Shown here piece by piece: positions 4,465 to 55,867 of a DNA stretch of 64,000 nt. Origin of the DNA: Parcubacteria group bacterium Gr01-1014_30 (GTDB lineage Bacteria; Patescibacteriota; Minisyncoccia; Minisyncoccales; 2-12-FULL-40-12); NCBI GenBank assembly GCA_007376185.1, contig VMFS01000003.1, positions 89,983 to 153,982 on the forward strand. The letters are read 5' to 3'. Position 1 is the stretch's first letter. Each line of letters starts with the position of its first letter. A program made the position numbers and the translations under genes. Under the pieces are notes generated by a model. It had not been told where the DNA came from. It saw nothing but the letters and a program-made list of their open reading frames with translations, and did not search any database.

Positions 4465-5113
4465 TAGAAGTAGGGAGCGTAAAAAGCGGGCGCTGATAGT
4501 TATTCAAGTTTTGAAAAAGCTTTTTCCAAAAGCCAAAATTGTTTTGAATTACTCAAATAACTGGGAGCTTTTAGTGGCGGTGGTGTTGTCGGCTCAGTGC
4601 ACCGACAAAAAAGTAAACGAAATTACCCAAGCACTTTTCAAAAAATACAGAACCTTGCAGGACTACGTAAAAGCCGACCAAAAAGAGTTTGAAGAAGATA
4701 TTAAGTCAGCCGGGTTTTACAGAAACAAAGCAAAAAACATCTTGGCTTCAGCACGAATCGTCAAAGATAAGTTTGGAGGCCAAGTGCCAGATACCATGGA
4801 AGGGCTTTTGCAACTTCCTGGTGTTGCCAGAAAAACCGCCAACATAATTTTAGGAAACGCTTTCGGAAAAGTTGAAGGCATAGCCGTTGACACGCACGTT
4901 CGGCGTCTCTCTAGAAAACTTGGTTTGACCGACAACCAAGACCCCAATAAAATAGAGCGCGATTTGATGGGGCTTTTGCCCAAAACAGAGTGGTTCAACT
5001 TCACTTACCGTTTGATAGACTACGGCAGAAAATTTTGTCCGGCAAGAAAACACAACTGTCAAAACCACCCTCTAACTAAAATCTGGCCCAAAGCCGCTGA
5101 CATTTGGCCATAA
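4409..5113 (+). CDS. nth: Endonuclease III (HhH-GPD DNA glycosylase)
   Basis: LLVAVVLSAQCTDKKVN, LPGVARKTANIILG and GIAVDTHVRR motifs. Start is uncertain because it overlaps the upstream gene. Confidence 0.85.
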   Translation: MSSIMQKSSNSTSAFREGSRSRERKKRALIVIQVLKKLFPKAKIVLNYSNNWELLVAVVLSAQCTDKKVNEITQALFKKYRTLQDYVKADQKEFEEDIKSAGFYRNKAKNILASARIVKDKFGGQVPDTMEGLLQLPGVARKTANIILGNAFGKVEGIAVDTHVRRLSRKLGLTDNQDPNKIERDLMGLLPKTEWFNFTYRLIDYGRKFCPARKHNCQNHPLTKIWPKAADIWP

Positions 5114-5175
5114 GGGGAGGACGAAGGGTAAATAGATTTTTTACAGGATTTGTGGTATGTTGAATTGTTAAAAAT

Positions 5176-6768
5176 ATGCTTCAAAAAGTTAAGGGATTTA
5201 TTTTTCAGCATAAAGTAGTTACGGGAGTAATAGTTGCGGTTTTACTGGTGGTCGGATGGCAGGCCTACAGAGCAATGACTGACGATTCTGGCGAGACACG
5301 ATATGTTTTGGCTCAGGTTCAAAAAGGAACCCTTAGTGTTTCGGTTTCTGGAACCGGGCAGGTTGAAGCCGGAACTCAAGTTGACTTAAAACCTAAAATT
5401 GCGGGCGAGGTGGCGCGTGTGCCCGTTCGAACTGGCGAGCCCGTAAAAGCCGGAACTTTGCTGGTACAGTTTGACTCAAGAGATGCGCAGCTGAACTTGG
5501 AAAATGAGAAGCTCGCGCTGGATAAATTAAAACTGGAACAGGGGCAGCGTTTGAGAGGGGACGTGCTGAATAAAGTTCAGGAGGAGGGTATGAGCGAGCT
5601 CGCGGGTTTTTACGGAGAATTTCTTGCTATTTTAGACGACCTTGACGATATTTTTTTCGGCACTGAAATATCGGGCAAATCATCTGAAGACAACATCACT
5701 TACTACGCGAAGTACGCTAAGCAGTCCAGCTTGATTCCCGCGCGCGCAAAAAATTTATTTGATGAGATACAAGGCCTGCACCAATCGGCGATTTCAGAGT
5801 TTGAAGGGGCCCAACGAGGAGGAAATTCTCAAAGAACGAGCGCTATTCAAAAAGGGGCTGAACTTGCCTCAAAAACCGCGGAATTAATAAAGCTTGGCAG
5901 AGACGCCGTAAGAGCCGTGCAGGATTTTATCATTGCTGAGGGAGTGGTCCACAGAAAACAGACTACCGTTGACAGCCATGGGTCCGACCTCGCCGACTAT
6001 GCTTTGGCAATAGACGACTATCTGCAAAGTTTGCTTGCCCTGGCCAACACTATCAATGGCGAACTTGACGATTTAGAATCCCAGCCACTGGAATTAAAAG
6101 CGCAGGAGCTGGCTGTTCTGGAGGCGCAAAATAAACTCGCCGATTACTACCTGAGAGCTCCCTTTGACGGCGTCATAGGGAGAGTTGACGTTAAAGCTGG
6201 CGAGCAGGTGTCTTTAGCAGACACGCTCGCAGTTCTTATTACCAGCCAGAAGTTTGCTGAAATTCCTTTAAACGAAATTGACGCGGCAAGGGTTTTGCCA
6301 GAACAGGAGGCAACTCTTACTTTTGACGCTCTGACCGATTTGGAAATAAAGGGTCAAGTTGCCGAAGTTGACGTCGTGGGCGACGTGTCGCAGGGGGTTG
6401 TAACTTATGATGTTAAAATTGCCTTTGAGTCAGCAGATTCCAGAATCAAACCATCAATGAGCGTTTCTGCCGATATAGTTACTCAAACCAAAACAGACGT
6501 TTTAATGGTGCCCAATTCAGCCGTGAAGACCCAGGGTAATGTTTCATACGTTGAACTTCCCGAGGGGGCCGGCAGACGAAATGTGCAAGTGGGCATTTCT
6601 TCGGACGAGTTCACAGAAATCGTTGCAGGGCTGCAGGAAGGCGAATCCGTTGTGGCCAGGATACTGCAAGGAAGTTCAGCGGCGCCTCAAAACAGCGGAT
6701 TTCCTTTTGGAGGCAGCAGAACTGTCGCTCCCGGAGGAGGTGGAAATAGGGTCTTCATCAGTCATTAG
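5176..6768 (+). CDS. HlyD/MacA-type periplasmic adaptor subunit
   Basis: N-terminal TM helix, barrel-sandwich plus long coiled-coil hairpin pattern. Followed directly by a MacB-type ATPase and permease. Confidence 0.75.
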   Translation: MLQKVKGFIFQHKVVTGVIVAVLLVVGWQAYRAMTDDSGETRYVLAQVQKGTLSVSVSGTGQVEAGTQVDLKPKIAGEVARVPVRTGEPVKAGTLLVQFDSRDAQLNLENEKLALDKLKLEQGQRLRGDVLNKVQEEGMSELAGFYGEFLAILDDLDDIFFGTEISGKSSEDNITYYAKYAKQSSLIPARAKNLFDEIQGLHQSAISEFEGAQRGGNSQRTSAIQKGAELASKTAELIKLGRDAVRAVQDFIIAEGVVHRKQTTVDSHGSDLADYALAIDDYLQSLLALANTINGELDDLESQPLELKAQELAVLEAQNKLADYYLRAPFDGVIGRVDVKAGEQVSLADTLAVLITSQKFAEIPLNEIDAARVLPEQEATLTFDALTDLEIKGQVAEVDVVGDVSQGVVTYDVKIAFESADSRIKPSMSVSADIVTQTKTDVLMVPNSAVKTQGNVSYVELPEGAGRRNVQVGISSDEFTEIVAGLQEGESVVARILQGSSAAPQNSGFPFGGSRTVAPGGGGNRVFISH

Positions 6769-11002: not shown

Positions 11003-11639
11003 AGAAAATGAGCATAGAGATTGCTTTATGCCGGATGGCGGCGGAGGTTGCAACGTTTATTTGGGAAGAAACAGTTCTTTGCGCTTTTTTACGTTTAATC
11101 TTGGAGGGAAATCTTTAAAAAACGAGCTCAATGTTGTTTTCAAAGGGAAAGGTGCGCGAGCCGAACTTTACGGGCTCTACTTGCCTCAAGACGGCCAGGT
11201 CATTGAGAACGAAACTCTTTTGCGTCACCAAGCGCCTTCTTGTGAAAGTTTTCAGCGCTACTACGGAATTTTGCCAATGGGCGGAAAAGCCGTTTTTAAC
11301 GGAAAGATTTTAATTGAAAGAAAAGCGCAAAAAACAAAAGCCTATCTTGAGAGCAAAAACATTCTTTTGAGCCCAGATGCGCAGATGCTCGGAAGGCCTT
11401 TTTTGGAGATATTTGCCGACGACGTTCAGTGCACCCACGGGTTTTCCAGTTCTCAAATTGAAGAAGACGAAATTTTTTACTTGAGAAGCCGAGGTCATAA
11501 CCTTGAGTCAGCCAAAAGAATTTTGCTCTTGAGCTTTGCTCAAAGAAATATAGACAAGGTCGCAGATGAGGAGACAAAAAATATATTATGCGAGAGGATT
11601 TCCCGATTTTTGAGCGAAAAATTGGAGGCAAAAAACTGA
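10986..11639 (+). CDS. sufD: Short SufD-like protein
   Basis: ATG 10986 follows GAGGAGAAGG. The C-terminal beta-helix region (QCTHGFSSSQIEEDEIFYLRSRG) matches SufB/D. About half the usual length. Confidence 0.75.
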   Translation: MDIFLKENEHRDCFMPDGGGGCNVYLGRNSSLRFFTFNLGGKSLKNELNVVFKGKGARAELYGLYLPQDGQVIENETLLRHQAPSCESFQRYYGILPMGGKAVFNGKILIERKAQKTKAYLESKNILLSPDAQMLGRPFLEIFADDVQCTHGFSSSQIEEDEIFYLRSRGHNLESAKRILLLSFAQRNIDKVADEETKNILCERISRFLSEKLEAKN

Positions 11640-12796
11640 TATATTTTGATTCCGCCTCGACAACTCAAAAGCCAAAAGAGGTCATTGACGCCGTTGCGTC
11701 TTTTTACAAGACCGCCAACAGCAATGTTCACAGAGGACTTTACTTCTTGAGCAGGGAAGCAACCGAGATTTTTGAAGCAACGAGAGAAAAAATCAGAAAG
11801 TTTATAAGCGCCGAGGAGGCAAGAGAAATAGTTTTTGTCAGAGGAACGACCGAAGCCATAAACTTGGTTGCAACTACTTTTGGAAAGAAGTTCGTTAAAA
11901 GGGGAGACGAAATTTTGATTTCTGAAATGGAGCATCATTCAAACATCGTGCCTTGGCAAATGGTTTGCCAGGATAGAGGCGCTAAATTAAAAATTATCCC
12001 GGTTACTGACTCTAGAGAGTTAAACTTGCAAGAGGCCGAAAAACTTATCACCAAAAAAACAAAACTTGTCGCAATAACGCACGTTTCTAACGTTCTTGGC
12101 ACAATCAACCCCGTAAAAGAAATAACAAAGTTGGCGCACAAAAAAAGAGTTCCTGTTTTGGTTGACGGCGCCCAGGCAGTGGGCCACATCAAAGTTGATG
12201 TTCGCGACTTGGATTGCGACTTCTATGCTTTTTCGGGACACAAAATGTACGGATCAACGGGCATTGGCGTTCTTTTCGGAAAAAAGGAGTGGCTGGAAAA
12301 ACTGCCGCCCTATCAGGGCGGCGGAGAAATGATAAAGCAAGTAACTTTTGAGAAAACGACTTATAACGATTTACCTTACAAGTTTGAAGCCGGCACTCCC
12401 GACATTGCCGGAGTTGTGGGCTTGGGAGCGGCGATTGACTACGTAACTAAAGTGGGCGCAGACCCGATACAGCGGCACGAGAAAGAATTGCTGAAATACG
12501 GACAAGAAGCACTATCTTCAATTGGCGGAGTAAAAATCTTTGGCAGAACAAGAAACAAAACAGGGATTATTTCTTTTATTTTGGAGAGAGTTCACCCCCA
12601 CGACGTTGGAACTTTTTTGGACGGAGAGGGTATCGCGATTAGAACCGGGCACCACTGCTGCCAACCCTTAATGGAGAGGTTGGGAGTGGTTGGCACTTGC
12701 CGGATTTCTTTCGGAATTTACAACACCAAACAAGAAATTGATAAACTAAAAACCGCTTTGTTAAAAGCAAGGGATTTCTTTCATGGAACAAACTAA
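11588..12796 (+). CDS. sufS: Cysteine desulfurase SufS (class V aminotransferase)
   Basis: HHSNIVPWQ, the PLP-Lys region FSGHKMYG, and RTGHHCCQP are present. Confidence 0.9.
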   Translation: MREDFPIFERKIGGKKLIYFDSASTTQKPKEVIDAVASFYKTANSNVHRGLYFLSREATEIFEATREKIRKFISAEEAREIVFVRGTTEAINLVATTFGKKFVKRGDEILISEMEHHSNIVPWQMVCQDRGAKLKIIPVTDSRELNLQEAEKLITKKTKLVAITHVSNVLGTINPVKEITKLAHKKRVPVLVDGAQAVGHIKVDVRDLDCDFYAFSGHKMYGSTGIGVLFGKKEWLEKLPPYQGGGEMIKQVTFEKTTYNDLPYKFEAGTPDIAGVVGLGAAIDYVTKVGADPIQRHEKELLKYGQEALSSIGGVKIFGRTRNKTGIISFILERVHPHDVGTFLDGEGIAIRTGHHCCQPLMERLGVVGTCRISFGIYNTKQEIDKLKTALLKARDFFHGTN

Positions 12797-13506: not shown

Positions 13507-13703
13507 CATTGAGTCGCACTTTGACAACTATAACTTTTGCTACTTGCAAAAACTTGCGAAAAGTCGCCATGGCTTTTTGGGTTCAATTTTGTTCGCTGAA
13601 AGCTTTGCTTTCCTCTCACCCCCTGCGCTAAAGTTTGGGGTTTTGAAGCTGAAAAGCTGTGGCGACATACCGTTGCCCGGTTCATCCGAAGGAGGATGAC
13701 GCC
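13507..13703 (+). promoter_or_regulatory. Cassette A conserved structured leader
   Basis: CATTGAGTCGCACTTTGACAAC...TGCTACTTGC...GTCGCCATGGC (13563-13573) pairs with GCTGTGGCGAC (13656-13666). AAGGAGG at 13689-13695. Shared with the other two cassettes. Confidence 0.6.
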
Positions 13704-14177
13704 ATGACTGAGATCATGCCCCCATCCGCTCGGCACGTGGAGGCAGTGAGCAAGATGTTCTGGCGCCGCGTACGCGTGAATCGCGCGCTCACCGCCGAGC
13801 AAGTGATTGACGATACAGGCCGGGTGCGGGGCTATGTCGACGAGAAAGTGCTCGCGACGATGCCTGGCGTCGGCAATGGGCCAGAAGAGGTCAAGGTGTG
13901 GTTTTTCGACCTCGACTACGACCCCACACCTAAAGAGCTGGAAAGCGAGTATCAGCTTCGGCGGCTCAAGCCTGACGCCGTCGCGCTCGCCAAGGCGAAC
14001 AAGGACGACCCAGCGCTCGCCGACGAGCGTCCCAACGCTTGCCAGTGGGGGCTCGGCGAGGACGGCAAGGCTTCTTGCGCCGTGTTCCTTCGTTTGTGCG
14101 ACTGGCGCAGCGTGCACGTCCACCGCCGCGACGATCGCTGGATTCGCCGCTACCGGTTCGCTGGCGTCCGCAAGTAG
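13704..14177 (+). CDS. GC-rich hypothetical protein, cassette A cargo
   Basis: ATG lies 8 nt after AGGAGG. 157 codons with strong G/C at third positions. C-terminus (...RYRFAGVRK) resembles the other two cassette proteins. Confidence 0.65.
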   Translation: MTEIMPPSARHVEAVSKMFWRRVRVNRALTAEQVIDDTGRVRGYVDEKVLATMPGVGNGPEEVKVWFFDLDYDPTPKELESEYQLRRLKPDAVALAKANKDDPALADERPNACQWGLGEDGKASCAVFLRLCDWRSVHVHRRDDRWIRRYRFAGVRK

Positions 14178-14235
14178 TACTTAGGTCTTGTTCCTTGGGT
14201 TTCGTGCCCTTGGAACTTGGCCGCACTCATTAAAT
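14170..14235 (+). promoter_or_regulatory. Cassette A conserved trailer (stop-codon box plus imperfect hairpin)
   Basis: GCAAGTAGTA (14170-14179) is complementary to leader 13538-13547. GGTCTTGTTCCTTGGG/CCCTTGGAACTTGGCC forms a stem with U-U mismatches. About 93% identical to 39526-39590. Confidence 0.55.
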
Positions 14236-14275
14236 GGGGCTGTGTCTGTTCGTTAGACCAGCCCTTTCTTTTTAT
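14236..14275 (+). terminator. Cassette A hairpin terminator
   Basis: GGGGCTGTGTCT-GTTCGTT-AGACCAGCCC followed by a T-run. Hairpin sequence is conserved in all three cassettes. Confidence 0.65.
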
Positions 14276-14455
14276 CCTTGTTTTGAAAAATTATCTATTG
14301 TAAAATTTTTAGTGAGAGTAGGCGAATGCGCGGGCGATCAAGGTTTCCCGTCGCCCAAATCAGTATCCATATAACCCAGAATATCTCCGACCAAGGTTTG
14401 AGGTAGATAGGTGTATGAGAGCTTAAAAAATGAAGTTACTTGATAAAGTAGCAGT

Positions 14456-15613: not shown

Positions 15614-15813
15614 CCCCGCCCTTACTTTGCGATTGCGCTATTTTGCGAAGCGCGAGCGGCGAATAGCCGCATCCCGTTCATGGGCGCAGCGCTTCGCCCG
15701 CTCAAGCGACAGCGCAGAGTATAAGAAGAGATTTATCTCTTCGCCCAACAAGGGGTGCACCTATTCGGTGCGCGCACTGCGCAAAATAATACAAGGGCAA
15801 AGTAAGGGCGGGG
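15614..15813. repeat. 200-nt palindromic element, family 4 (CCCCGCCC termini)
   Basis: Arms CCCCGCCCTTACTTTGC / GCAAAGTAAGGGCGGGG. TTGA on both flanks (15610-15613, 15814-15817). Confidence 0.7.
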
Positions 15814-15849
15814 TTGACAAGATATATTGAAAATGTATATATTTAATAT

Positions 15850-16578: not shown

Positions 16579-16688
16579 CATAGTATTCCGCACTTTTACA
16601 ACTACACTTTTACTACTTGCGAAAAGTCGCCATAGCTTTTTGGTTTTGAATTTTTGAGACCAAAGAGCTGTGGCGAAAGGAGGATGCG
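16579..16688 (+). promoter_or_regulatory. Cassette B conserved structured leader (shortest version)
   Basis: CATAGTATTCCGCACTTTTACAAC...TACTACTTGC (16611-16620). GTCGCCATAGC (16626-16636) pairs with GCTGTGGCGA (16667-16676). AAGGAGG at 16677-16683. Confidence 0.6.
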
Positions 16689-17171
16689 ATGAATCAGGAA
16701 AAGCGGCGGCCGGACATAGCAATCGTGCAAACTTATCCCGCCGTTGGCGAGGCTTTTGAGTTAACTATTGACTTTGACGCGCCCGAGAACCAACCGCTTG
16801 AGATGCTTAAGCGCGACAGTTACAACCCCGAGGGCTGGAATTACACGGGCAAAAAGGTTACTGGCAAACACACCCGCCGCTTCAAACTTGTTCAGGTTGG
16901 CTACTCTGTCACTTTTGCTCCCTTTGCTGAGGTTAGGCAGAAAATTGTCTCGCACGGCGAGGTTCCCGAGGGCCAATGGAGGCAGGCCTTCAAGGCCACC
17001 TATCCGATTCACGACGGGAAGGGCGCTGTTAACGTGCTCGATTCCTCGTGGGTGGATTCAAATGGTGAAGCCAGGTTTCCGTACATCGAAACGCTTGGCC
17101 TATCGAGCTTCAGCTTGACTAGGCGCATATTCACAGAGCAGTGCCGTTATCTCGTCGCTATCCACGAGTAG
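16689..17171 (+). CDS. Hypothetical protein, cassette B cargo
   Basis: 160 codons, ATG 5 nt after AGGAGG. GC moderately above flanks. The C-terminal half aligns by eye with the cassette A and C proteins. Confidence 0.65.
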   Translation: MNQEKRRPDIAIVQTYPAVGEAFELTIDFDAPENQPLEMLKRDSYNPEGWNYTGKKVTGKHTRRFKLVQVGYSVTFAPFAEVRQKIVSHGEVPEGQWRQAFKATYPIHDGKGAVNVLDSSWVDSNGEARFPYIETLGLSSFSLTRRIFTEQCRYLVAIHE

Positions 17172-17187
17172 TATTGATTTTTACCAA

Positions 17188-17229
17188 GGGGCTGTGTCTG
17201 TTTTTTAGACCAGCCCCTCTTGTTTTTTT
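17188..17229 (+). terminator. Cassette B hairpin terminator
   Basis: GGGGCTGTGTCT-GTTTTTT-AGACCAGCCCC followed by a T-run. Confidence 0.65.
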
Positions 17230-17283
17230 GACATTTTTTGATATGCGATTTTGAAAAATGATTATAAACAATTATAGTGAGAT

Positions 17284-19945: not shown

Positions 19946-20419
19946 ATGCTTGTTTTGCAAGCTCTAAAAGAACCAAAATACCTAGCTTTGGCCGTTGTTT
20001 TTGCGGTTTTGGTAATGTCGCTTTACGCTTTTTTGCAGGTTTTGCCCCAAGGCGTGAATAATTTTTGGTTCTGGTTTACACTGCTCACGCCTTTGGCTTG
20101 GCTGCTTTACGTGGTTTACGGAATTTTGTTTGGGGTTACCTTATCATTTTTCATCTGGCAGAGAGTTAAAAAAAATTACCCCTCATCTAAAGCTGTGAAA
20201 GGAGGTTTATTGGGCGCTTTGGGCGGCGTTCTGGGGACAACGGCGCCGGTCTGCTCAGCTTGTCTGCCTTGGGCGGTTTTACTGTTGCCGGCAAGCCTTG
20301 CTTTTCCTTTTGTGCAGTACAACTCCCTGATTATGACTTTCAGCATTGGTTTACTCATTTTGGCCCTTTGGCTTTTGGGAGGGTTCACCCCCACACCAAA
20401 TGAGGATATCCGCACCTAG
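19946..20419 (+). CDS. Polytopic membrane protein with a CxxC motif
   Basis: About 4 TM helices and a CSAC motif, directly downstream of the DsbA-like gene. The last ~10 codons and stop lie in repeat 20388-20473. Confidence 0.4.
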   Translation: MLVLQALKEPKYLALAVVFAVLVMSLYAFLQVLPQGVNNFWFWFTLLTPLAWLLYVVYGILFGVTLSFFIWQRVKKNYPSSKAVKGGLLGALGGVLGTTAPVCSACLPWAVLLLPASLAFPFVQYNSLIMTFSIGLLILALWLLGGFTPTPNEDIRT

Positions 20420-20473
20420 GGGCTTCGCCCCGGTGCGTTTATCGTGAAACGAATCCTCGTTATGGTGTGGGGG
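20388..20473. repeat. Palindromic element, family 3 (CCCCCACACC...GGTGTGGGGG)
   Basis: Inverted arms with a GGGGCTTCGCCCC centre. Copies at 46525-46638 and 55552-55637. Confidence 0.7.
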
Positions 20474-20483
20474 TTTCAAAAAA

Positions 20484-21077
20484 ATGTCTAAGTTCGCTGA
20501 GCCTTCGGTTCCTCTCGCGCCTCGCTCTACTCCGCAGAGCCCGGCAGAAGAGTACAAGTTAAAACGGCAGGAAAAGATCCAAGCAAAAGATGCCGAAAAG
20601 CAGAAAAGAAGAATTAAAAAAACTGCAAAAAAGGCAGGAGTGGTTTTGTTAGTTTTGGCTGCATTGTTATTGTTTGGGGGCGGCTGGTATCTAGTTTCTA
20701 AAGTCGAGCCGGCTGAAAAGTCAGACATTGTCTCAAGAACCCCGATTCACTGGCATCCCGAGCTGAAAATTAAAATTTTGGGAGAGTATCAAGAAATACC
20801 GGCAAACATCGGCATTGGCATTGTTCACCAGACGCTTCACACTCATGACCCGGACGGTATAATTCATATTGAGCCAACAGGTTTGGTGCGGGAAAATGAT
20901 ATTAAACTTGGAAGATTTTTTGAAATATGGGGCAAAACTTTTAATGAAAGCTGCATTTTTGAATACTGCTCGGGCCCTCAGGGTCAAGTGAAAATGTTCG
21001 TTAACGGCGAGCCAAATTTTGACTTTGAAAATTACATAATGCGCGATGGGGATAGGATCGAGATTATCTTTGAATAA
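20484..21077 (+). CDS. Membrane-anchored hypothetical protein with a His-rich C-terminal domain
   Basis: Lys-rich N-terminus, one TM helix, then IHWHPELKI...HTHDPDGIIHIE. The first ~12 codons overlap an inverted fragment of the 25108-type repeat. Confidence 0.5.
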   Translation: MSKFAEPSVPLAPRSTPQSPAEEYKLKRQEKIQAKDAEKQKRRIKKTAKKAGVVLLVLAALLLFGGGWYLVSKVEPAEKSDIVSRTPIHWHPELKIKILGEYQEIPANIGIGIVHQTLHTHDPDGIIHIEPTGLVRENDIKLGRFFEIWGKTFNESCIFEYCSGPQGQVKMFVNGEPNFDFENYIMRDGDRIEIIFE

Positions 21078-21210
21078 TCAAAGGTCGTTAATCGTTAATA
21101 GTTTATCGTTTAGCGCGTCCCGTTTCGTTAAAAGTTAAGGGTTAACGGCCCCAAAACGCTAAACCCTAAACGATACGGGCATCGCTAAACCCTAACCGCT
21201 AAACGCAATT
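21078..21210. repeat. TAAACG/CGTTTAGCG-rich palindromic element
   Basis: Shares CGTTTAGCG...CCCGTTTCGT...ACGATACGGG...ATCGCTAAACCC..GCTAAACG blocks with 45527-45660. Confidence 0.6.
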
Positions 21211-21216
21211 TATATC

Positions 21217-22298: not shown

Positions 22299-22655
22299 CT
22301 AAGTAAATAGGTGGATAGGCCCGTCTTTCCACTTATTACTCATCCATTTTTCTACATAAGAAACTTTCTTATCATAAAGTTTTATTGTTTTGATTTCCTT
22401 CAATAACTTCTTAACCCAACTCTTTTTATAAATTCTTAAGTGATATGTTTTTTTTCTAGGAAAGCCATCTTTACTAATATATGCATCTTGATTCGAGTAT
22501 TTAGCTTCTATACCTAGATAATTTTTCATTAAAATTCTTATAGCTTCCGTTCTTTTATTATCAGTACTGGTAATGTCCAGACATATTTTAGGTATTTTTC
22601 TAGCACTATCGTTAATAATTTTTACGCAACCATCAGCATCAAAAAATCCTTCCAT
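22299..22655 (-). CDS. LAGLIDADG-type homing endonuclease-like protein, short/truncated
   Basis: Begins MEGFFDADGC (single LAGLIDADG motif). 118 aa. The local sequence is much more AT-rich than its neighbours. Confidence 0.6.
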   Translation of the reverse strand: MEGFFDADGCVKIINDSARKIPKICLDITSTDNKRTEAIRILMKNYLGIEAKYSNQDAYISKDGFPRKKTYHLRIYKKSWVKKLLKEIKTIKLYDKKVSYVEKWMSNKWKDGPIHLFT

Positions 22656-24424: not shown

Positions 24425-25041
24425 AAATAAAAAAAATAATTGACATATCTTTACCTCTGAGCGAGGGAATGGTTGTTTACCCCAACAATCCCAGGATTTC
24501 GATTGAGACAAGGAAGGGCCAAACCTCAACTTTATCAAAGATAGATTTCGGGTCGCATACCGGAACTCACGTTGACGCGCCAAAACACGTTTTTGACAAC
24601 GGAAAAGGCGTGGATAAAATTGAACTGGAAAAACTGATAGGTGAGTGCCGTGTGCTGGATATGACAAAAGTTAAGGAGTCCGTCAAAATCGCCGACTTCA
24701 AAAAAGCCAACATTAAAAAAGAAGAGAGAATTTTGGTGAAAACGAAAAACTCGCAAAGGGGTTTCACGAAGTTTTACAAAGATTATGTTTATCTTGACGG
24801 CGAGGCGGCAGAGTTTCTGGCAAAGAAAGGGATTTCGCTTTTTGGCATTGATTACTTGTCCGTAAAAAAGCGGGGAGGGGCGGATTTGCGGCCGCATACC
24901 TCTCTTTTGAAAAAGGGGATTGTGATTTTTGAAGGGCTGGATTTATCCAAAATGAAGCCAGGGAAATATTTTTTTATCGGGTTGCCATTAAGGTTTGTCG
25001 GTCTTGACGGTTCACCCGCCAGAGCAGTTTTGCTAAAATAG
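24421..25041 (+). CDS. Cyclase-family protein (kynurenine formamidase-like)
   Basis: HTGTHVDAPKH motif. GTG 24421 overlaps the zwf stop (GTGA). Confidence 0.7.
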   Translation: MKIKKIIDISLPLSEGMVVYPNNPRISIETRKGQTSTLSKIDFGSHTGTHVDAPKHVFDNGKGVDKIELEKLIGECRVLDMTKVKESVKIADFKKANIKKEERILVKTKNSQRGFTKFYKDYVYLDGEAAEFLAKKGISLFGIDYLSVKKRGGADLRPHTSLLKKGIVIFEGLDLSKMKPGKYFFIGLPLRFVGLDGSPARAVLLK

Positions 25042-25065
25042 AGAAGGGAGTCGCTCGGCAACGAA

Positions 25066-25239
25066 GTTTTCAGTCACCGATAGTCGCCTCGTCCAGCGAC
25101 TCGGCGCTATCTGCATTCCCGAGTTTTCGCGAAGCGAAAACGAATGGCGAGAGGAACCGAAGGTTCAGCGAGCTCGGCGGCAAATTCTTCGCTACGCTCA
25201 GAAACCATGCTTTGCCGCCTGCGAAAGCTGTCTGAAAAC
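25066..25239 (+). repeat. ~170-nt conserved structured element, copy 1 (upstream of pgi)
   Basis: Near-identical blocks to 48223-48393. Closing stem GTTTTCAG/CTGAAAAC. One internal hairpin differs between copies but stays paired. Confidence 0.6.
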
Positions 25240-25261
25240 TTGTTGCCGAGCTTGAAGCGAG

Positions 25262-25449
25262 TTATGAGTAATTTTGCAAATCTTACGAAGGTGAAGTATA
25301 CATACTTAATCGCCGAACAGGAAAAGTGTCTAGTCGGAAAACCCCGCCCGTCCGCAGATGGGCGGGGGCAAACGGAGTACTGGACAATTTTCCGTGGTGA
25401 GGCGTTATGCGTCCTTCACCGCAGCACCAATTCGCAAAATTACTCATAG
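25262..25449. repeat. 188-nt palindromic element nested between the 170-nt element and the pgi start
   Basis: Arms TATGAGTAATTTTGC / GCAAAATTACTCATA. CGAG on both flanks (25258-25261, 25450-25453). Confidence 0.65.
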
Positions 25450-25461
25450 CGAGCGCGTACT

Positions 25462-26463: not shown

Positions 26464-26653
26464 TGCCTCGGCGGTTGAAGATTTCAAAAAACTTATCGCG
26501 TAACCTTTCGTAGCGGAGATTACTTGACTTTTATTTGAAGGTTGCGCTAATATCTTTGTAGTGTTCTTTACAAAGAAATAGTTTGGTACTTTTGACTTCT
26601 TGAGAGAATAAAATGCCCCACGAGCGGGCAGAAAGTAGGCGAACTTGAACGAT

Positions 26654-27700
26654 ATGAGGCAAGGTCAGGAGTTGGTCCTTAGTCAACGTTTTGAAGCCGT
26701 TAATCAGTTTATTGGCCAGAGCGTGGCCGCTCAGAAGGCGAGAGCTTTTGCCTTGCGAGTGGCGGCGGGTTCTGACCTAACTGTTTTGGTCCGGGGAGAA
26801 ACCGGAGTTGGAAAAGACCACTTAGCCGAGCTGATTCATGAGTTGGGTCGTTGTGGAAAACCATTTGTGCGTGTTGATTGTGGAGCTTTAACGGAAACGC
26901 TTTCCGAGGCCGAGTTGTTCGGCCACGCCCCCGGCGCTTTCACTGGCTCCGTTGGAGCAAAAGAAGGGTTGGTTAAGGTGGCAAGAGAGGGCACTCTTTT
27001 TTTCAACGAGGTTGCCAATATGAGCTTGGGTCTTCAGGCAAAGTTCTTGGGGGTTTTGGACAGGAAACCTTTCCGGCCCGTTGGCGGGAAAGAAACCTTT
27101 CCGGTTAAGGCCAGGATTATCGCGGCGACTAACTTTAAACTTGAGGAGATGGTTAGAGCGAGGACTTTCAGGGAGGATTTATTTTACCGCTTGAACGTGG
27201 TTCCCTTTTCTATAGCGCCGTTACGTGAGCGCAAGGAAGATATTCCGGAGTTGGCCGCGGCGTTCCTTGCTGAGAGCAGGAAGAGAATTTTGCCGGAAGC
27301 GGTGGATTTGATGACCGGTTACGATTGGCCGGGCAACGTTAGACAACTTAGGGACGTTGTTCAAGCCGCGGCTCTTATGAGCAATGGAGAGGAGATTGGC
27401 GTTGAAGAAGTTAAGCCACGCTTGGATCAGCAATTGAGGCAAGTTGCCGCAGACAAGAGGGTTATCAGTGAGTTCTACGACGAAGACCGCAGACTTTTGC
27501 CCATCAGAGAAATTGAGAAGCGATACCTTTCTGTTTTGCTCGAGGCCGCTGAAGGGAATATTTCGACTGCGGTAGCAATTTCCGGATGGGCCAGAGATAC
27601 AGTGTATAGAAGGATTTGTCAATTTGGTTTAGAAGATTTTGTTTTATCTCGCAGGAGAGATGCTTATCTTAAGAGAATGGTTAAGAGAAGGGAAGTATAA
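26654..27700 (+). CDS. Sigma-54-interaction-domain transcriptional activator (AAA+ plus C-terminal HTH), no sensor domain
   Basis: GETGVGKD Walker A. ELFGHAPGAFTGS GAFTGA-like loop. FFNEV Walker B. DWPGNVRQL. Fis-type HTH at the end. Confidence 0.8.
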   Translation: MRQGQELVLSQRFEAVNQFIGQSVAAQKARAFALRVAAGSDLTVLVRGETGVGKDHLAELIHELGRCGKPFVRVDCGALTETLSEAELFGHAPGAFTGSVGAKEGLVKVAREGTLFFNEVANMSLGLQAKFLGVLDRKPFRPVGGKETFPVKARIIAATNFKLEEMVRARTFREDLFYRLNVVPFSIAPLRERKEDIPELAAAFLAESRKRILPEAVDLMTGYDWPGNVRQLRDVVQAAALMSNGEEIGVEEVKPRLDQQLRQVAADKRVISEFYDEDRRLLPIREIEKRYLSVLLEAAEGNISTAVAISGWARDTVYRRICQFGLEDFVLSRRRDAYLKRMVKRREV

Positions 27701-38729: not shown

Positions 38730-38891
38730 CATAGAGTGGCACTTTGACAACATATTTTTACTACTTGCGAGCAGTCGCCATAGCACATAGAGCGTTAGTT
38801 GATAGGCGCTTTATGTGCTGTGGCGAAAACAGGTCAGCTGCGATTCGCATAGTGCGTACGCGGTCAGCCGGTCATGGCGATGGAGGCCATC
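38730..38891 (+). promoter_or_regulatory. Cassette C conserved structured leader
   Basis: CATAGAGTGGCACTTTGACAAC...TACTACTTGC (38759-38768). GTCGCCATAGC (38774-38784) pairs with GCTGTGGCGA (38817-38826). GGAGG at 38882-38886. Confidence 0.6.
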
Positions 38892-39533
38892 ATGGCCAAC
38901 ATAACGGTAAGCGCGGAACAGAGACTCGAACTCGCTATGTCGCTCTTGAGGAACGCTGACTGGTCGCGACTCACGCCGGAATCGGTCCAAGTCGTGATCG
39001 ACGCCGCACCGAAGAGCGCGGGCAGGGAATTCACTTACTTCGTGGAAAACGGCGGGTGGGTCCAGGTTGGCGACTTCTTCCGCGAAACGGGAGAACTTGC
39101 GATCCAGATTCCGGCTTTGCCGCGCCTGAAACTCGCGGAACTCCGGGAGAAGTTCCTTTGGATCCGCGAGGAAGAGGGCATCGAGCGCGACGTCTCGCCG
39201 ACCGAGGCGGTAACGCTCCGGCTCGGCACCGTGCTCCGCGCCGACGAGGAATCGCTTGACGGCAAAGAGTACAAGCGCAGGCGCGCCTCGCTCACAGGTC
39301 TCCACGGCTACCAGCAGGCGGCCTGGTTCGTGGAACACCAGGACGAGTTCCCCGAACTCATGACCCTTCTCGGGAAGATATACATTGACTTCCCGGGGCT
39401 GGTCGTGGTGAGCGCGGACGGCGACCGGAGCTTCCCGTGTCTGCGTCAGAGCGGCGAGCGCTGGAAGTTGGATTGGGGCTGGGTCGGGGGCGGCTTCAAC
39501 TCCTTCGGGCGTATCGCGTCGTCCGGCAAGTAG
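38892..39533 (+). CDS. GC-rich hypothetical protein, cassette C cargo
   Basis: 213 codons from the ATG 5 nt after GGAGG. Strong G/C third-position bias. The C-terminus ...FPCLRQSGERWKLDW...FGRIASSGK resembles the A and B proteins. Confidence 0.65.
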   Translation: MANITVSAEQRLELAMSLLRNADWSRLTPESVQVVIDAAPKSAGREFTYFVENGGWVQVGDFFRETGELAIQIPALPRLKLAELREKFLWIREEEGIERDVSPTEAVTLRLGTVLRADEESLDGKEYKRRRASLTGLHGYQQAAWFVEHQDEFPELMTLLGKIYIDFPGLVVVSADGDRSFPCLRQSGERWKLDWGWVGGGFNSFGRIASSGK

Positions 39534-39590
39534 TACTTAGGCCTTGTTCCTTGGGTTTTGCGCTCTTGGAACTTGGTCGCACTCATTAAT
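39526..39590 (+). promoter_or_regulatory. Cassette C conserved trailer (stop-codon box plus imperfect hairpin)
   Basis: GCAAGTAGTA (39526-39535) is complementary to 38759-38768. The hairpin is near-identical to 14180-14222. Confidence 0.55.
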
Positions 39591-39632
39591 GGGGCTGTGT
39601 CTGTTCGTTAGACCGGTCCCTTTCTTTTTGTC
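39591..39632 (+). terminator. Cassette C hairpin terminator
   Basis: GGGGCTGTGTCT-GTTCGTT-AGACCGGTCCC followed by a T-run. Confidence 0.65.
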
Positions 39633-39718
39633 CTTGTTTTGAAAAATTATCTATTGTAAAATTTTTAGTGTAATTAAGGACATCGCAAGTCCTTAGATTA
39701 ACACTCTTATTCTAAAGT

Positions 39719-41735: not shown

Positions 41736-41921
41736 GCAACGCTCGCCCCATCCTGATTCGGGGAGCACGCAGTCGGCTAAAAGAGGTAAATTATATAACT
41801 GGCTCGCGCCGCTGCTATCTCTCGCCCCGCCTCACATACTTCTAGATAACACATACTCTGTGGCAAGCGGGGCTGCGAGGTGCACCCCGAACAGGACGTG
41901 GCTCGCTCTAAAAATTACAAC

Positions 41922-42596
41922 ATGAAACCTCTAATCGTAGGAAATTGGAAAATGAATCCCGATTCGCCGGGCCGAGCGGTTTTGCTCGCCAAGAAAGTTG
42001 AACTCGGCATTGCCAAAATTAAGGGAGCAAACATTGTCATCGCGCCTCCTTTTCCTTTTCTTTTGCCCGTTGGCAAGGTTTTGAAAAGGGCGCGCCTCGG
42101 CGCGCAAGATTTATTCTGGGAAGCCGAAGGCGCTTTTACAGGCGAGGTTTCCTGGCATCAATTGAAACACTTGAGAGTTGAATACGTTATAATTGGGCAC
42201 TCGGAAAGGCGTGCCCTTGGTGAAAGCGACGAGATGGTAAACAAAAAAATAAAAGCCGCTCTACAGGCCGGTTTAAAACCGGTTGTCTGCATCGCGAATG
42301 CTATCCAGTTAAAAAAAGCGTTAAAGACCATTCAAGAGTCAAGAGTCAAGACTCAAGATTCTATTCTGGCTTTTGAGCCGTTATCTGCCATTGGCACGGG
42401 CAAACCCTACGACGTTGGAGCTTCAAAGAGAATGCGAAACGCAATAAAATACCCTTTTGTTTTGTACGGAGGCAGCGTTAACTCAAAGAACGCGCCAGAT
42501 TACGTCAAGAAAGCCGGCTTTCAGGGTTTTTTGGTTGGGGGCGCTTCTTTGAAAGCTGGGGAGTTTGTTAAAATAGTTCAGAAAATATGTCAATAA
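41922..42596 (+). CDS. tpiA: Triosephosphate isomerase
   Basis: GNWKMN, IIGHSERR and AFEPLSAIGTG motifs. Confidence 0.85.
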   Translation: MKPLIVGNWKMNPDSPGRAVLLAKKVELGIAKIKGANIVIAPPFPFLLPVGKVLKRARLGAQDLFWEAEGAFTGEVSWHQLKHLRVEYVIIGHSERRALGESDEMVNKKIKAALQAGLKPVVCIANAIQLKKALKTIQESRVKTQDSILAFEPLSAIGTGKPYDVGASKRMRNAIKYPFVLYGGSVNSKNAPDYVKKAGFQGFLVGGASLKAGEFVKIVQKICQ

Positions 42597-45525: not shown

Positions 45526-45526
45526 A

Positions 45527-45660
45527 AGTTAATGGTTTAGCGTTAAGCGTTTAGCGAAGCCCGTATCGTGAGGCGTCAAAGGTTTAGCGCAAAAGACGCT
45601 AAACGTTAAACTCTTAACGAAACGGGTATCGCTAACCCATAAACGCTAAACGAAACTAAC
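45527..45660. repeat. TAAACG/CGTTTAGCG-rich palindromic element, copy 2
   Basis: Shares its blocks with 21078-21210. Fills the whole ftsZ-nnr intergenic space. Confidence 0.6.
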
Positions 45661-46524
45661 ATGAAGGAAGTATCAAAATCAATTCTAAAAGAGATTTACA
45701 AAAAGAGGCCGCCTGACGCCAAAAAGTACGACTATGGTCTTTTAACCGTGATTGGGGGCTCTGACTTTTATTCCGGCTCACCGGCCTTGGCCGGTCTTGC
45801 GGCTTTCCGCGCCGGAGTTGACATGGTAAGGATTATCGCGCCAAAAAGAGCAGCCGACATTATCGCTTCTTTTTCGCCCAACTTGGCTTCATATCCTTTA
45901 AAAGACGGCTTTCTGACAAAAGACCACTTGGCGACCTTATTGACAATGACCGAGTCGGCCAAAGCCGTTTCAAACGGGAGAACCGCCGTGGTTATTGGCG
46001 GCGGTTTGGGGCGTTCTGAAGCCACGCAGGCAGCGATTCTGGAGTTTCTTTCTCAAGTTTCAGTTCCGGTTGTCATTGACGCGGACGCTATTCATGCCTT
46101 GGCCAGAAAACCAGAAGTCGTTTCGGCAAAGCCGTTCTTAATCACTCCCCACACTTACGAGTTTTTCATTTTGACAAAAAGAAAAGTTCGCAAACTGCCG
46201 GATGAAGAAAAGATAAAAGCTGTTCAGGAAGAAGCCGCTCGTTTGGGAACGACTATTTTATTAAAGGGACACGTTGACATAATCTCTGACGGGCAGGACG
46301 TTGCTCAAAACAAAGCAGGCAGTCCTTATTTAACCGTTGGCGGAACCGGCGACACTTTGGCCGGAATTTGCGGGGCTTTGTTGGCGCGCGGCGCAGATCC
46401 TTTTTTGGCCGCGCAAGCAGGCGCCTTTATAAATGGTGCATCGGGCGAGAAAGCCGCCAAAAAACTCGGCGAGTCAATGACCGCCACCGACTTGACTGAA
46501 GCAATCCCGGAAATTATCGCGTGA
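45661..46524 (+). CDS. nnrD: ADP-dependent NAD(P)H-hydrate dehydratase (YjeF C-terminal type)
   Basis: Carbohydrate-kinase fold. GGGLG and GGTGDTLAG motifs. Confidence 0.8.
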   Translation: MKEVSKSILKEIYKKRPPDAKKYDYGLLTVIGGSDFYSGSPALAGLAAFRAGVDMVRIIAPKRAADIIASFSPNLASYPLKDGFLTKDHLATLLTMTESAKAVSNGRTAVVIGGGLGRSEATQAAILEFLSQVSVPVVIDADAIHALARKPEVVSAKPFLITPHTYEFFILTKRKVRKLPDEEKIKAVQEEAARLGTTILLKGHVDIISDGQDVAQNKAGSPYLTVGGTGDTLAGICGALLARGADPFLAAQAGAFINGASGEKAAKKLGESMTATDLTEAIPEIIA

Positions 46525-46638
46525 CCCCCACACCTACTCCACTGAAAATTTGAGGTAACTCAAGTACGTAAGGCGAAGCCGCCTATCGGCTTGATTATTA
46601 TTTATTACCACAAGTCCTCGCAAGAGTAGGTGTGGGGG
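46525..46638. repeat. Palindromic element, family 3
   Basis: CCCCCACACCTACTC...GAGTAGGTGTGGGGG. Starts right after the nnrD stop (GTGA). Its right end abuts TTGACA-17-TATAAT. Confidence 0.7.
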
Positions 46639-46717
46639 TTGACAGGCGCCAGCGATATATATATAATAAAGCTATCGGTTTGCGAATTGCTGTTTAAAAA
46701 AAGAAAAGGAGGAAGCA

Positions 46718-47068: not shown

Positions 47069-48223
47069 ATGTCATTTGACTCTGTTGTAAAAAAGGTAAG
47101 AGCTAAGCAGATTCTTGATTCAAGGGGGAAAAAGACGGTTGAGGTACAACTGACAACCGGCTTGGGAAAGTTTTTGGCTTCTTGCCCTTCAGGCACCTCT
47201 ACTGGTAAGTACGAAGCCAGGACCGTGGAAGTTAAAGAAGCCCTTGAAAATATAAACCGTATTATTGCTCCTGTTCTTCTGGGCAAATCGGCAGCTAACC
47301 AAAAGGAAGTTGACAAGGCGCTTGATAAAAAACTGGGCGCCAACGCGACTTTGCCTGTTTCCATTGCGGTTTCAAGAGCCGGAGCGAAAGCGAAAAATAT
47401 TCCGCTTTGGAAATATATTTCTAGAATCGCCCGAACAAAATCCCAGTTCCCAAAGCCGGCTGTTCTGCTGATTGAAGGGGGATTGCACGGGAAAACAGAA
47501 CTTGACATTCAGGAATTTATGATGATTCCGGAAGGAAGAACATTTCGCGAGCAGTTTTCAACGGGCAAAAAAATATACGAAAAGTTAAAGAAAATTTTAA
47601 GGAACAAGTTCGGCAAGAAGGGAGTTGTAACCGGCCTGGAAGGCGCTTTCAACCCTCCGATTTCAGATGTAAGAGCGGCGCTTGATTTGATAATGGCCTC
47701 GGCCAGGGGCTATAATGTAAAAGTCGGCTTGGATTACGCCGCTTCAAATATAAAGAAGGGGAAATATAATATCGCTTTTTACCAAAAACTGGTTAGAGAT
47801 TACCCAATTTTATTTCTGGAGGATCCTTTCGGCGAAGAAGATTGGAATAAATGGGAAGAACTAAACTACAAACTAAAAACTACCAACTACAAACTTTTAG
47901 TTGTTGGCGATGATCTGACCGTAACGAATTCTAAAAGAATTAGAATGGCTCACAGAAAAATGGCCTGCAACGCTGTAATCATTAAGCCAAATCAAATCGG
48001 CACGGTTTCAGAAACGATTGAGGCCTCATTGTTAGCAAAAAGTTACGGCTGGAAAACGATTGTTTCCCATCGCGCTGGTGAAACCAAAGACGATTTTATT
48101 GCCGACTTTGCAGTCGGCATTGGAGCGGATTTCATCAAGGCTGGAGCGCCTTCGCAGAAAGAAAGAATGGCAAAATATAATAGATTGTTGAGAATAGAAA
48201 AAGAACTTCGTTCGGCAATATAG
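47069..48223 (+). CDS. eno: Enolase (short form)
   Basis: SRGKKTVEV...PSGTSTGKYEA, IKPNQIGT and SHRAGETKD motifs. Confidence 0.9.
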   Translation: MSFDSVVKKVRAKQILDSRGKKTVEVQLTTGLGKFLASCPSGTSTGKYEARTVEVKEALENINRIIAPVLLGKSAANQKEVDKALDKKLGANATLPVSIAVSRAGAKAKNIPLWKYISRIARTKSQFPKPAVLLIEGGLHGKTELDIQEFMMIPEGRTFREQFSTGKKIYEKLKKILRNKFGKKGVVTGLEGAFNPPISDVRAALDLIMASARGYNVKVGLDYAASNIKKGKYNIAFYQKLVRDYPILFLEDPFGEEDWNKWEELNYKLKTTNYKLLVVGDDLTVTNSKRIRMAHRKMACNAVIIKPNQIGTVSETIEASLLAKSYGWKTIVSHRAGETKDDFIADFAVGIGADFIKAGAPSQKERMAKYNRLLRIEKELRSAI

Positions 48224-48393
48224 TGTTTAGCCACCGATAGTTCAAATCTCCAGCGAGATTTGAACTATCTGCATTCCCGAGTTTTCGCGAAGCGAAAACG
48301 AAGGGCGAGAGGAACCGAAGGTTCAGCGAGCTCGGCGGCTGATTCGCTTGTGGCGAAACCATGCTCATCCGCCTGCGAAAGCTGTCTGAAAAC
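48223..48393 (+). repeat. ~170-nt conserved structured element, copy 2 (upstream of the gpm-like gene)
   Basis: Aligns with 25066-25239. An outer stem GGCAATATA (48214-48222) / TATATTGCC (48394-48402) differs from copy 1 but is also complementary. Confidence 0.6.
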
Positions 48394-48411
48394 TATATTG
48401 CCTCACTCCTT

Positions 48412-53039: not shown

Positions 53040-53101
53040 GCCTCGCGATAGCGAGGCGAGGTGTGAGAGGAATGCGAAGCATTCAGCGAACAGCCAAGAC
53101 C

Positions 53102-55483: not shown

Positions 55484-55867
55484 CAGAGTTCTTATCCGGC
55501 TGGCTTCCTTTTTAACGGCAGGGCTTTCGTGTTCGCCGCTGTGGGCCCTCACCCCCACACCATAACGAGCAGCGGCTTCGCCGTTTACGCCACGGGACGA
55601 AGTTCCTAGCGGCGTATCTGCTCGTTTGGTGTGGGGGTAGCTGGGGCGCTTTTGGTCAAGGTGTAAGTTAAGGTGGAGAGCGCTGCCTTCCGTTTTGGCG
55701 TATATGTGAAATCGCGGGAAACCGCCCCGCGCCAAAGCTCTGACGGCTGACGTTTCCTTTGCACTTTCGTCAAATCGTTTGAAAGAGTAGCCGATTTTCC
55801 TCAACGCGCCAGCCAAACTATTCCGGCAATTTTCCACGACAATTTTCATAAGCTGATAAATATACAC
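55457..55867 (-). CDS. Hypothetical protein carrying a family 3 palindromic insert
   Basis: 136 aa. FPRFHIY...LNLHLDQK region. The central PHTKRADTPLGTSSRGVNGEAAARYGVGV is encoded by repeat 55552-55637. Confidence 0.4.
   Translation of the reverse strand: MYIYQLMKIVVENCRNSLAGALRKIGYSFKRFDESAKETSAVRALARGGFPRFHIYAKTEGSALHLNLHLDQKRPSYPHTKRADTPLGTSSRGVNGEAAARYGVGVRAHSGEHESPAVKKEASRIRTLLNGSFRSG
55552..55637. repeat. Palindromic element, family 3, inside a CDS
   Basis: CCCCCACACCATAACGAGCAG...CTGCTCGTTTGGTGTGGGGG with a GCGGCTTCGCCG centre. Confidence 0.7.

Follow-up and report, generated by a model that had tools for sequence, protein, structure and literature searches.

Probable nested families of small structured repeats between central-carbon genes of a Parcubacteria genome

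Two copies of a strongly folding element of ~190 bases precede sugar-metabolism genes of Parcubacteria group bacterium Gr01-1014_30, and on balance we think it probable that each combines two families of structured, lineage-specific repeats, one nested in the other: family A, a ~130-nt four-helix element, and family B, a two-hairpin module of ~54–60 nt (GAGAG-hairpin-AGCGA) lodged inside it. The element looks like selfish palindromic DNA kept foldable as RNA, and not like a metabolite-sensing switch, because the inner module also lies in-frame within protein genes; a riboswitch reading is unsupported.

Members of the CPR/Patescibacteria have tiny, tightly packed genomes that are commonly held to contain few repeats and little regulatory RNA. 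If our reading holds, small repeats that fold strongly are present in several families in one Parcubacteria lineage or more; they fill few-nucleotide gaps where the genes of relatives abut or overlap, nest in one another and add peptide segments to proteins, in parallel to the Rickettsia palindromic elements (RPEs) of another reduced, host-dependent lineage. The organism, a tiny groundwater bacterium of the CPR, is represented by a MAG contig of 180.7 kb. We read 78 kb of its genome and ~120 kb of relatives; the window, meaning the whole stretch of DNA under study, is 64,000 nt long.

Position and fold of the two composite copies

Composite copy 1 (family A core plus nested module) occupies 25053–25251 on the + strand, between a cyclase-family gene and pgi. 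Composite copy 2 occupies 48214–48402 on the same strand and runs from the last enolase codons to just before the ATG (48412) of a gpm-like (His_Phos_1) gene. R1, a covariance model built from these two copies, scores them at 212.8 and 227.4 bits, respectively. They are 82.5% identical over ~200 columns (blastn; also MAFFT and a repeat search), with blocks of 81 nt at 96% and 40 nt at 93% identity. An earlier interpretation made from the letters of the window (the sequence-only reading) had reported two copies of a ~170-nt conserved element upstream of two sugar-metabolism genes, and they exist as described; the gene identities that it guessed, pgi and a gpm-like gene, agree with the Pfam domains of the flanking genes (bact-PGI_C, enolase, His_Phos_1 and GAPDH). 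The nearest pgi homologue is 60% identical and the nearest enolases are 70–74% identical. Because 75 of the 86 called genes of the window lie on the + strand, placement on the ‘sense strand’ carries little weight.

Predicted folding energies are −89.0 kcal/mol for copy 1 (z −6.0) and −81.7 kcal/mol for copy 2 (z −6.9), and for each copy none of 200 shuffles folded as well. The RNAalifold consensus comprises the closing helix P1, P2 (GATAG/CTATC), P3 (GTTTTCGC-GAA-GCGAAAAC), an irregular P4, P5 (GGCGG/CCGCC) and P6 (GCGAAAGC). In copy 1, all on the + strand, P1 pairs 25053–25076 with 25229–25251, and the P2 hairpin (GATAG...CTATC, 25079–25111) has a stem unlike that of copy 2 around the conserved loop CCAGCGA. 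The nested P3-P4 module follows at 25123–25174, where P4 reads GGC/GAGAG/GAACC-GAA-GGTTC/AGCGA/GCT, and then come P5 and P6 at 25176–25228, P5 being GGCGGCAAA...TTTGCCGCC, which encloses a further hairpin and has an ACCATGC bulge, and P6 a mini-hairpin. The module of copy 2 (48281–48332, + strand) is one base apart from that of copy 1 (G 48303 vs T 25145). Sequences vary between the copies yet still pair in the GATAG/CTATC hairpin, as had been claimed, and also in the distal GGCGG/CCGCC hairpin and in the middle of the closing helix, and the GTTTTCGC-GAA-GCGAAAAC hairpin is present. The putative CCGAG/CTCGG helix is invariant, and shares two contested G's with the GGCGG helix.

The closing helix extends past the conserved core in both copies, as the sequence-only reading had seen, but its 5' strand is not the ‘unrelated sequence’ that was supposed. 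In copy 2 this strand (48214–48223) is made of the last codons and the TAG stop (48221–48223) of enolase. In copy 1 it is CGCTCGGCAACGAA, identical to the 3' coding end of enolase in the relative L061 (RSATK and stop), so that copy 1, although away from enolase, carries 14 nt of an enolase-type coding tail and thus derives by duplication from an element of an enolase junction. The suspicion that the insertion had truncated enolase was dropped, since close homologues are of equal length and KELRS-type enolase tails are common in Parcubacteria. The extended helix ends 9 nt from the gpm-like ATG in copy 2. In copy 1 it would end ~18 nt from the pgi ATG, once a 188-nt palindrome and one GCGAG duplicate are subtracted. 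That palindrome (25262–25449, between copy 1 and pgi) is a MITE-like insertion with 19-nt terminal inverted repeats, arms that are 95% complementary and a direct GCGAG on both sides (25257–25261 and 25449–25453); blastn returned only its match to itself.

Directly after pgi, 26645–27700 encodes a 351-aa sigma-54-type AAA+ activator (Sigma54_activat and HTH_8) that has no N-terminal sensor domain and is unexpected in a CPR genome.

The nested module and its insertion sites

Six instances of the module, in four or five sequence variants, were recovered, five of them in the 64-kb window (three sense, two antisense). Besides the two within the composite copies, the sequence-only reading had noticed an inverted 30-nt fragment; the fragment is real but longer (~20493–20546) and amounts to the complete inner two-hairpin module. 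This reverse copy (20493–20546, − strand) forms an in-frame 18-codon insertion, FAEPSVPLAPRSTPQSPA, after codon 3 (MSK) of the open reading frame (ORF) at 20484–21077. The insertion is absent from five 177-aa homologues that are 69–77% identical, and a homologous insertion occurs in the proteins P0243 and P0246. Its GAACC/GGCTC stem pairs at four of five positions, the lone mismatch being a G-U on the transcribed + strand.

Two further window instances had gone unlisted. The first is a stand-alone P3-P4 module at 53040–53092 (+ strand), between the stop codon of an acetyl-CoA synthetase (ACS) gene (53037–53039) and the ATG (53102) of a PEP-synthase/PPDK-like gene (pps), with P3 reading GCCTCGC-GATA-GCGAGGC and P4 TGT/GAGAG/GAATGC-GAA-GCATTC/AGCGA/ACA. 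The ACS–pps junction thus holds a 62-nt insert in the window, and nothing is inserted in the relative L058, where the genes overlap at ATGA. An R1 match at 52998–53161 had been a candidate for a 3'-truncated full copy and was rejected, its supposed 5' half being native ACS coding sequence that is homologous in L058. The ACS-like protein (window 52890–53039; L058 15846–16025) ends in a hydrophobic, membrane-anchor-like tail of ~40 residues, conserved in L058 and unusual for this enzyme family.

The second unlisted instance (~13593–13640, − strand; GGT/GAGAG/GAAAGC-AAA-GCTTTC/AGCGA/ACA) lies within the apical region of the 5'-UTR hairpin that belongs to the repeated gene 13704–14177. This gene belongs to one of three paralogous cassettes (13552–14314, 16615–17242 and 38763–39670), each with a conserved 5'-UTR hairpin (ACTTGCGAAAAGTCGCCAT...), an ORF of 157–213 aa that matches no Pfam family and, as a conserved terminator, a GC hairpin with a T-run; one of the UTR hairpins carries the module insertion. 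The sixth instance lies in the redoxin gene of L058 (L058:6003-6095, + strand) as a 31-codon in-frame insertion: aligned with the L062 orthologue, which is 67% identical, the protein shows 31 residues against a single one (a 30-aa gap).

The GAGAG...AGCGA motif is kept in all module instances (R1, blastn and a descriptor search), and the stems that it flanks differ but pair (GAACC/GGTTC, GAATGC/GCATTC, GAAAGC/GCTTTC and GAAC/GTTC). P3 exists in three different versions, each paired. The GAGAG and AGCGA strands can form tandem G-A pairs and are not Watson-Crick complementary.

Filled and empty sites can be compared at the ACS–pps junction, in ORF 20484, in the redoxins of L058 and L062, in family A with and without the module, and at the enolase–gpm junction against L060 and L064. 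The MITE family that had been suggested gains from these pairs, but not from target-site duplications: the flanks show no consistent direct repeat around family A or the module, and a GAG/CGAG repeat is conceivable at just one place, where the module sits within family A. Nor could a sequence-conserved outermost terminal repeat be defined for either. A repeat or mobile origin is in sum much better supported than a conserved leader of glycolytic genes, although in an unforeseen form, that of two nested families, and the earlier interpretation as a whole is partly supported.

The hairpins might instead act as DNA, as cruciform or single-stranded sites for a nuclease, a recombinase, a transposase (REP/RAYT-like or IS200/IS605-like) or a DNA-binding regulator, with the RNA fold incidental. 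GCGAAGC and GCGAAAGC, which are known to form unusually stable DNA mini-hairpins, recur in several repeat families of the genome; the invariant CAGCGA stands beside covarying hairpins, as GTAG does in REPs; the module occurs in both orientations; and the sense and antisense folding energies of the element are similar overall. However, no transposase, RAYT, TnpA or other recombinase gene was found among the Pfam-annotated genes of 78 kb of the contig and the L058 contig, the motif forms no duplex palindrome because GAGAG and AGCGA are not Watson-Crick complementary, and the G-U pairs of P1 are A-C mismatches on the other strand. We regard a DNA-level role as quite unlikely.

ORF 20484 also bears on the idea that the copies are genes of small trans-acting RNAs, with GAGAGGAACCGAAGGTTCAGCGA, for example, antisense to the first codons of that ORF. 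Complementarity to its 5' end reaches 88–93% over 28–34 nt, and weak promoter-like hexamers lie just upstream of each copy (25011–25039 for copy 1). The complementarity exists because ORF 20484 carries the inverted in-frame module, an insertion that two homologues elsewhere share; no terminator follows either copy; and copy 2 is squeezed between a stop codon and a start codon 9 nt past the helix, with no room for an independent gene. Such trans-acting RNAs are highly improbable.

The enolase-junction core among relatives

Family A was found only in the window and in L058 (GCA_964372865.1), whose enolase is 72% identical and whose gene order from FtsZ to PPDK is the same. The L058 homologue (L058:11010-11140; R1 E = 1.5e-10) overlaps the last six enolase codons and the stop, so that in this family the 5' closing strand is again the end of enolase; it has no P3-P4 (~58 nt). 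At the enolase junction, family A is absent from four of five relatives (L060, L061, L062 and L064). The enolase–gpm gap measures 18 nt in L060 and 13 nt in L064. The L061 junction holds a different palindromic element of ~175 nt, homologous to window 41736–41925 upstream of the TIM gene, and the L062 junction (4970–6478) an MjaI-type restriction-modification pair. The junction is thus an insertion hot spot for unrelated DNA. Because the enolase tree is star-like (identities of 72% for window–L058, 76% for L058–L061 and 74% for window–L061), the distribution of family A is patchy. In L058 the gene after family A (11150–12057) is a 282-aa membrane-protein ORF and not gpm; its first codons resemble a gpm start.

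The palindrome at window 41736–41925 and its counterpart at L061 4246–4425 (~180 nt, 67% identical; GGGAGCACGCAGTCGGCT..., CCGCCGCTGCTAT...) make up a second structured repeat family common to genomes, and both members adjoin glycolytic genes.

Upstream of pgi, the relatives L003, L005, L006 and L007 have gaps of 12–116 nt with no R1 match, so the element is not a conserved pgi leader. The gene before pgi is a G6PD–6PGD fusion 116 nt away in L003 and a 6-phosphogluconolactonase-like gene 12 nt away in L006. The proposal of a conserved leader of glycolytic genes does not survive comparison with the pgi and enolase junctions of relatives.

Structural constraint on the core was examined in an alignment of three sequences from two genomes (copy 1, copy 2 and L058) with the module removed by hand, a sample from which no probability can be obtained. 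In this alignment 89% of cells are paired against 33–48% in slid controls, 13 pairs in P1 and P5 differ in both partners, six of the nine P5a pairs show compensatory double changes and P1 is 94.5% paired; the compensatory changes in the second genome back the structure that had been proposed from the two copies. The window and L058 agree at 96% of positions in a 28-nt 3' block and differ nowhere in a 17-nt block, the invariant GCCTGCGAAAGCTGTCT, and CAYTCCTTATG is conserved before the next start codon in copy 2 and L058. Read on the sense strand, P1 has five G-U cells for every A-C cell, which fits an RNA-level constraint. P1 also acts like terminal inverted repeats, its ends being the best-conserved parts between the window and L058, while the bases of its middle change together from copy to copy and its 5' arm encodes the end of enolase.

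These features count against a purely selfish repeat. The double changes in P1 and P5 and a block 96% identical despite 72% enolase identity point to purifying selection on a function and not to neutral junk; copy numbers are low, and all three sense-strand copies precede central-carbon genes (pgi, gpm-grx-gapdh and pps). Core A, stripped of the module, may accordingly be read as a cis-acting intercistronic RNA at the enolase stop of a lower-glycolysis operon, serving processing, stability, translational coupling, or metabolite or protein binding; its duplicate would have put pgi under the same control, and the module would be a later parasitic or accessory insertion. Such a role would suit the shared position over the enolase stop in two genomes, the invariant and near-invariant blocks, the motif ahead of the next start codon, the pairing statistics, the multi-helix junction with its GNRA-capped mini-hairpin, the G-U excess, and the sense copies before pgi and gpm with promoter-like boxes just upstream.

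Several observations weigh on the other side. Only three sequences from two genomes carry the core, four of five related enolase junctions and the pgi loci of relatives are without it, and in L058 the downstream gene is a membrane-protein ORF and not gpm. The L058 copy folds with no exceptional stability (z −1.4), folding is much alike for the sense and antisense strands, and the junction accepts unrelated insertions. No terminator-like site was seen at any copy, no Shine-Dalgarno (SD) sequence precedes pgi, gpm or pps, and an SD-sequestering platform was not found, in a genome in which most genes have no SD anyway. We rate a cis-acting RNA as possible but doubtful.

A bolder version is less likely still. 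Core A would then be an undescribed intercistronic RNA of a Parcubacteria subclade whose P1 clamps the enolase stop to the next start region, tuning or coupling lower-glycolysis genes, with the invariant CUGCGAAAGCUGUCU / CAGCGA possibly recognising a metabolite or a protein; duplication would have extended this control to pgi, and the module would be the first RPE-like, protein-invading palindromic family described in the CPR. Were the enolase-junction core functional, it would give rare access to how an uncultivated phylum controls its central metabolism at the post-transcriptional level. The case also carries a caution: copies within one genome together with covarying stems are insufficient for calling a riboswitch, because palindromic repeats mimic that signal.

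Wider searches returned no relatives of the element. At the gathering threshold, Rfam reported only tRNA in the window, and at E ≤ 10 both copies drew only unrelated weak matches. The exact-core pattern GAGAGGAACCGAAGGNTCAGCGA had no matches in viral, JGI-metagenome or GTDB-genome collections. A degenerate P4 pattern, blind to AAA-loop variants, gave 20 and 26 matches, none with the hairpin or from the CPR, which we judged to be chance or coding. The conserved 3' block had no matches in viral contigs; blastn searches of plasmids and phages gave none either; the open frame through the element, compared with 1.84 billion protein representatives, yielded one spurious repetitive match.

Among 85 window genes, 65 have no SD, and many have TATAAT 6–10 nt before the ATG (upstream of 47069, 51021, 19135 and 59527, for example); boxes so close to the start codon suggest widespread leaderless mRNAs. 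SD or anti-SD sequestration via CACTCCTT was dropped as an idea, most genes being without SD. By eye, neither a sigma-54 promoter nor a k-turn nor a hammerhead core fitted.

Spread, known counterparts and other palindromes

On the favoured explanation, two nested repeat families, family A would have been duplicated once, helix-end to helix-end, from the enolase junction to the front of pgi, and the family B module would have entered family A and no fewer than four further sites. Spread was presumably duplicative, transposition-like or recombinational, as for RPEs and other MITE-like repeats. The elements are probably co-transcribed with the genes around them, which lie almost uniformly on the + strand, and could persist because a compact RNA fold (P1 or back-to-back hairpins) joins the two ends of the insertion. 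Such a fold would keep the upstream stop near the start of a formerly abutting or overlapping gene and so disturb expression little. The glycolytic link would then stem from the ancestral enolase location and a few nearby secondary insertions, and not from metabolite sensing.

Among known systems, stably folding transcripts and nesting are described for MITEs, and in-frame insertion for RPEs (PMC10969869). The module resembles RPEs as a short hairpin repeat of a reduced, host-dependent bacterium that is both intergenic and in-frame, adding peptide (here 18 aa and 31 aa). Unlike RPEs, it has an unrelated sequence, occurs in the phylum CPR/Patescibacteria in few copies, is shorter (54–93 nt against ~100–150 nt), surrounds a covarying hairpin with an internal loop, GAGAG/AGCGA, that never varies, and is also nested in a larger element. 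REP/BIME and pneumococcal BOX elements likewise set an invariant short motif by covarying hairpins, in both orientations and in modules alone or combined, but differ in sequence and size; there is no RAYT gene in the sequence read here, and the module enters coding sequence.

Correia/NEMIS, ERIC and Coxiella QMITE2 elements are imperfect palindromes of ~100–200 nt at gene ends that are co-transcribed, nest and cluster, and their terminal closing helix can serve as an RNase target or alter mRNA stability (PMC10969869). Family A shares their size range (~100–200 nt), a place at a gene end, a closing helix formed from the termini and nesting. Unlike them, it has no target-site duplication or cognate IS in the sequence examined, is a branched four-helix junction and not one long hairpin, uses the coding tail of the upstream gene as its 5' ‘terminal repeat’ and numbers two copies plus one in a relative. 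With orphan riboswitch candidates it has in common a P1-closed multi-helix junction near a start codon, conserved junction nucleotides, a GNRA mini-hairpin, variable peripheral stems and a position before metabolic genes. It departs from them as a composite that has no Rfam family or expression platform and is not conserved upstream of the same genes; its two in-genome copies are near-identical in the core, where paralogous aptamers have diverged, and the module, mobile on its own, makes up a third of the ‘aptamer’.

Many other intergenic gaps of the window hold strongly structured palindromes of other families, with z down to −9.7. Palindromes of ~90–115 nt with the ends CCCCCACACC...GGTGTGGGGG lie at 20387–20474, 55551–55638 (inverted) and 46524–46639. 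A TTGACA plus TATAAT-like box comes directly after the last of these and after the palindrome at 15614–15815 (unrelated, CCCCGCCC...GGGCGGGG), as if both were promoter-adjacent. The latter, a near-perfect palindrome of ~200 nt (CCCCGCCCTTACTTTGCG...GCAAAGTAAGGGCGGGG), is the most stable intergenic fold of the window (z −9.7). Palindromes of ~135 nt rich in TAAACG/CGTTTA, at 21078–21216 and 45526–45660, are ~72% identical in both orientations (z −3.7 and −7.3, respectively). A lone minus-strand ORF among + strand genes (22299–22655; 118 aa) has a weak LAGLIDADG_3 match.
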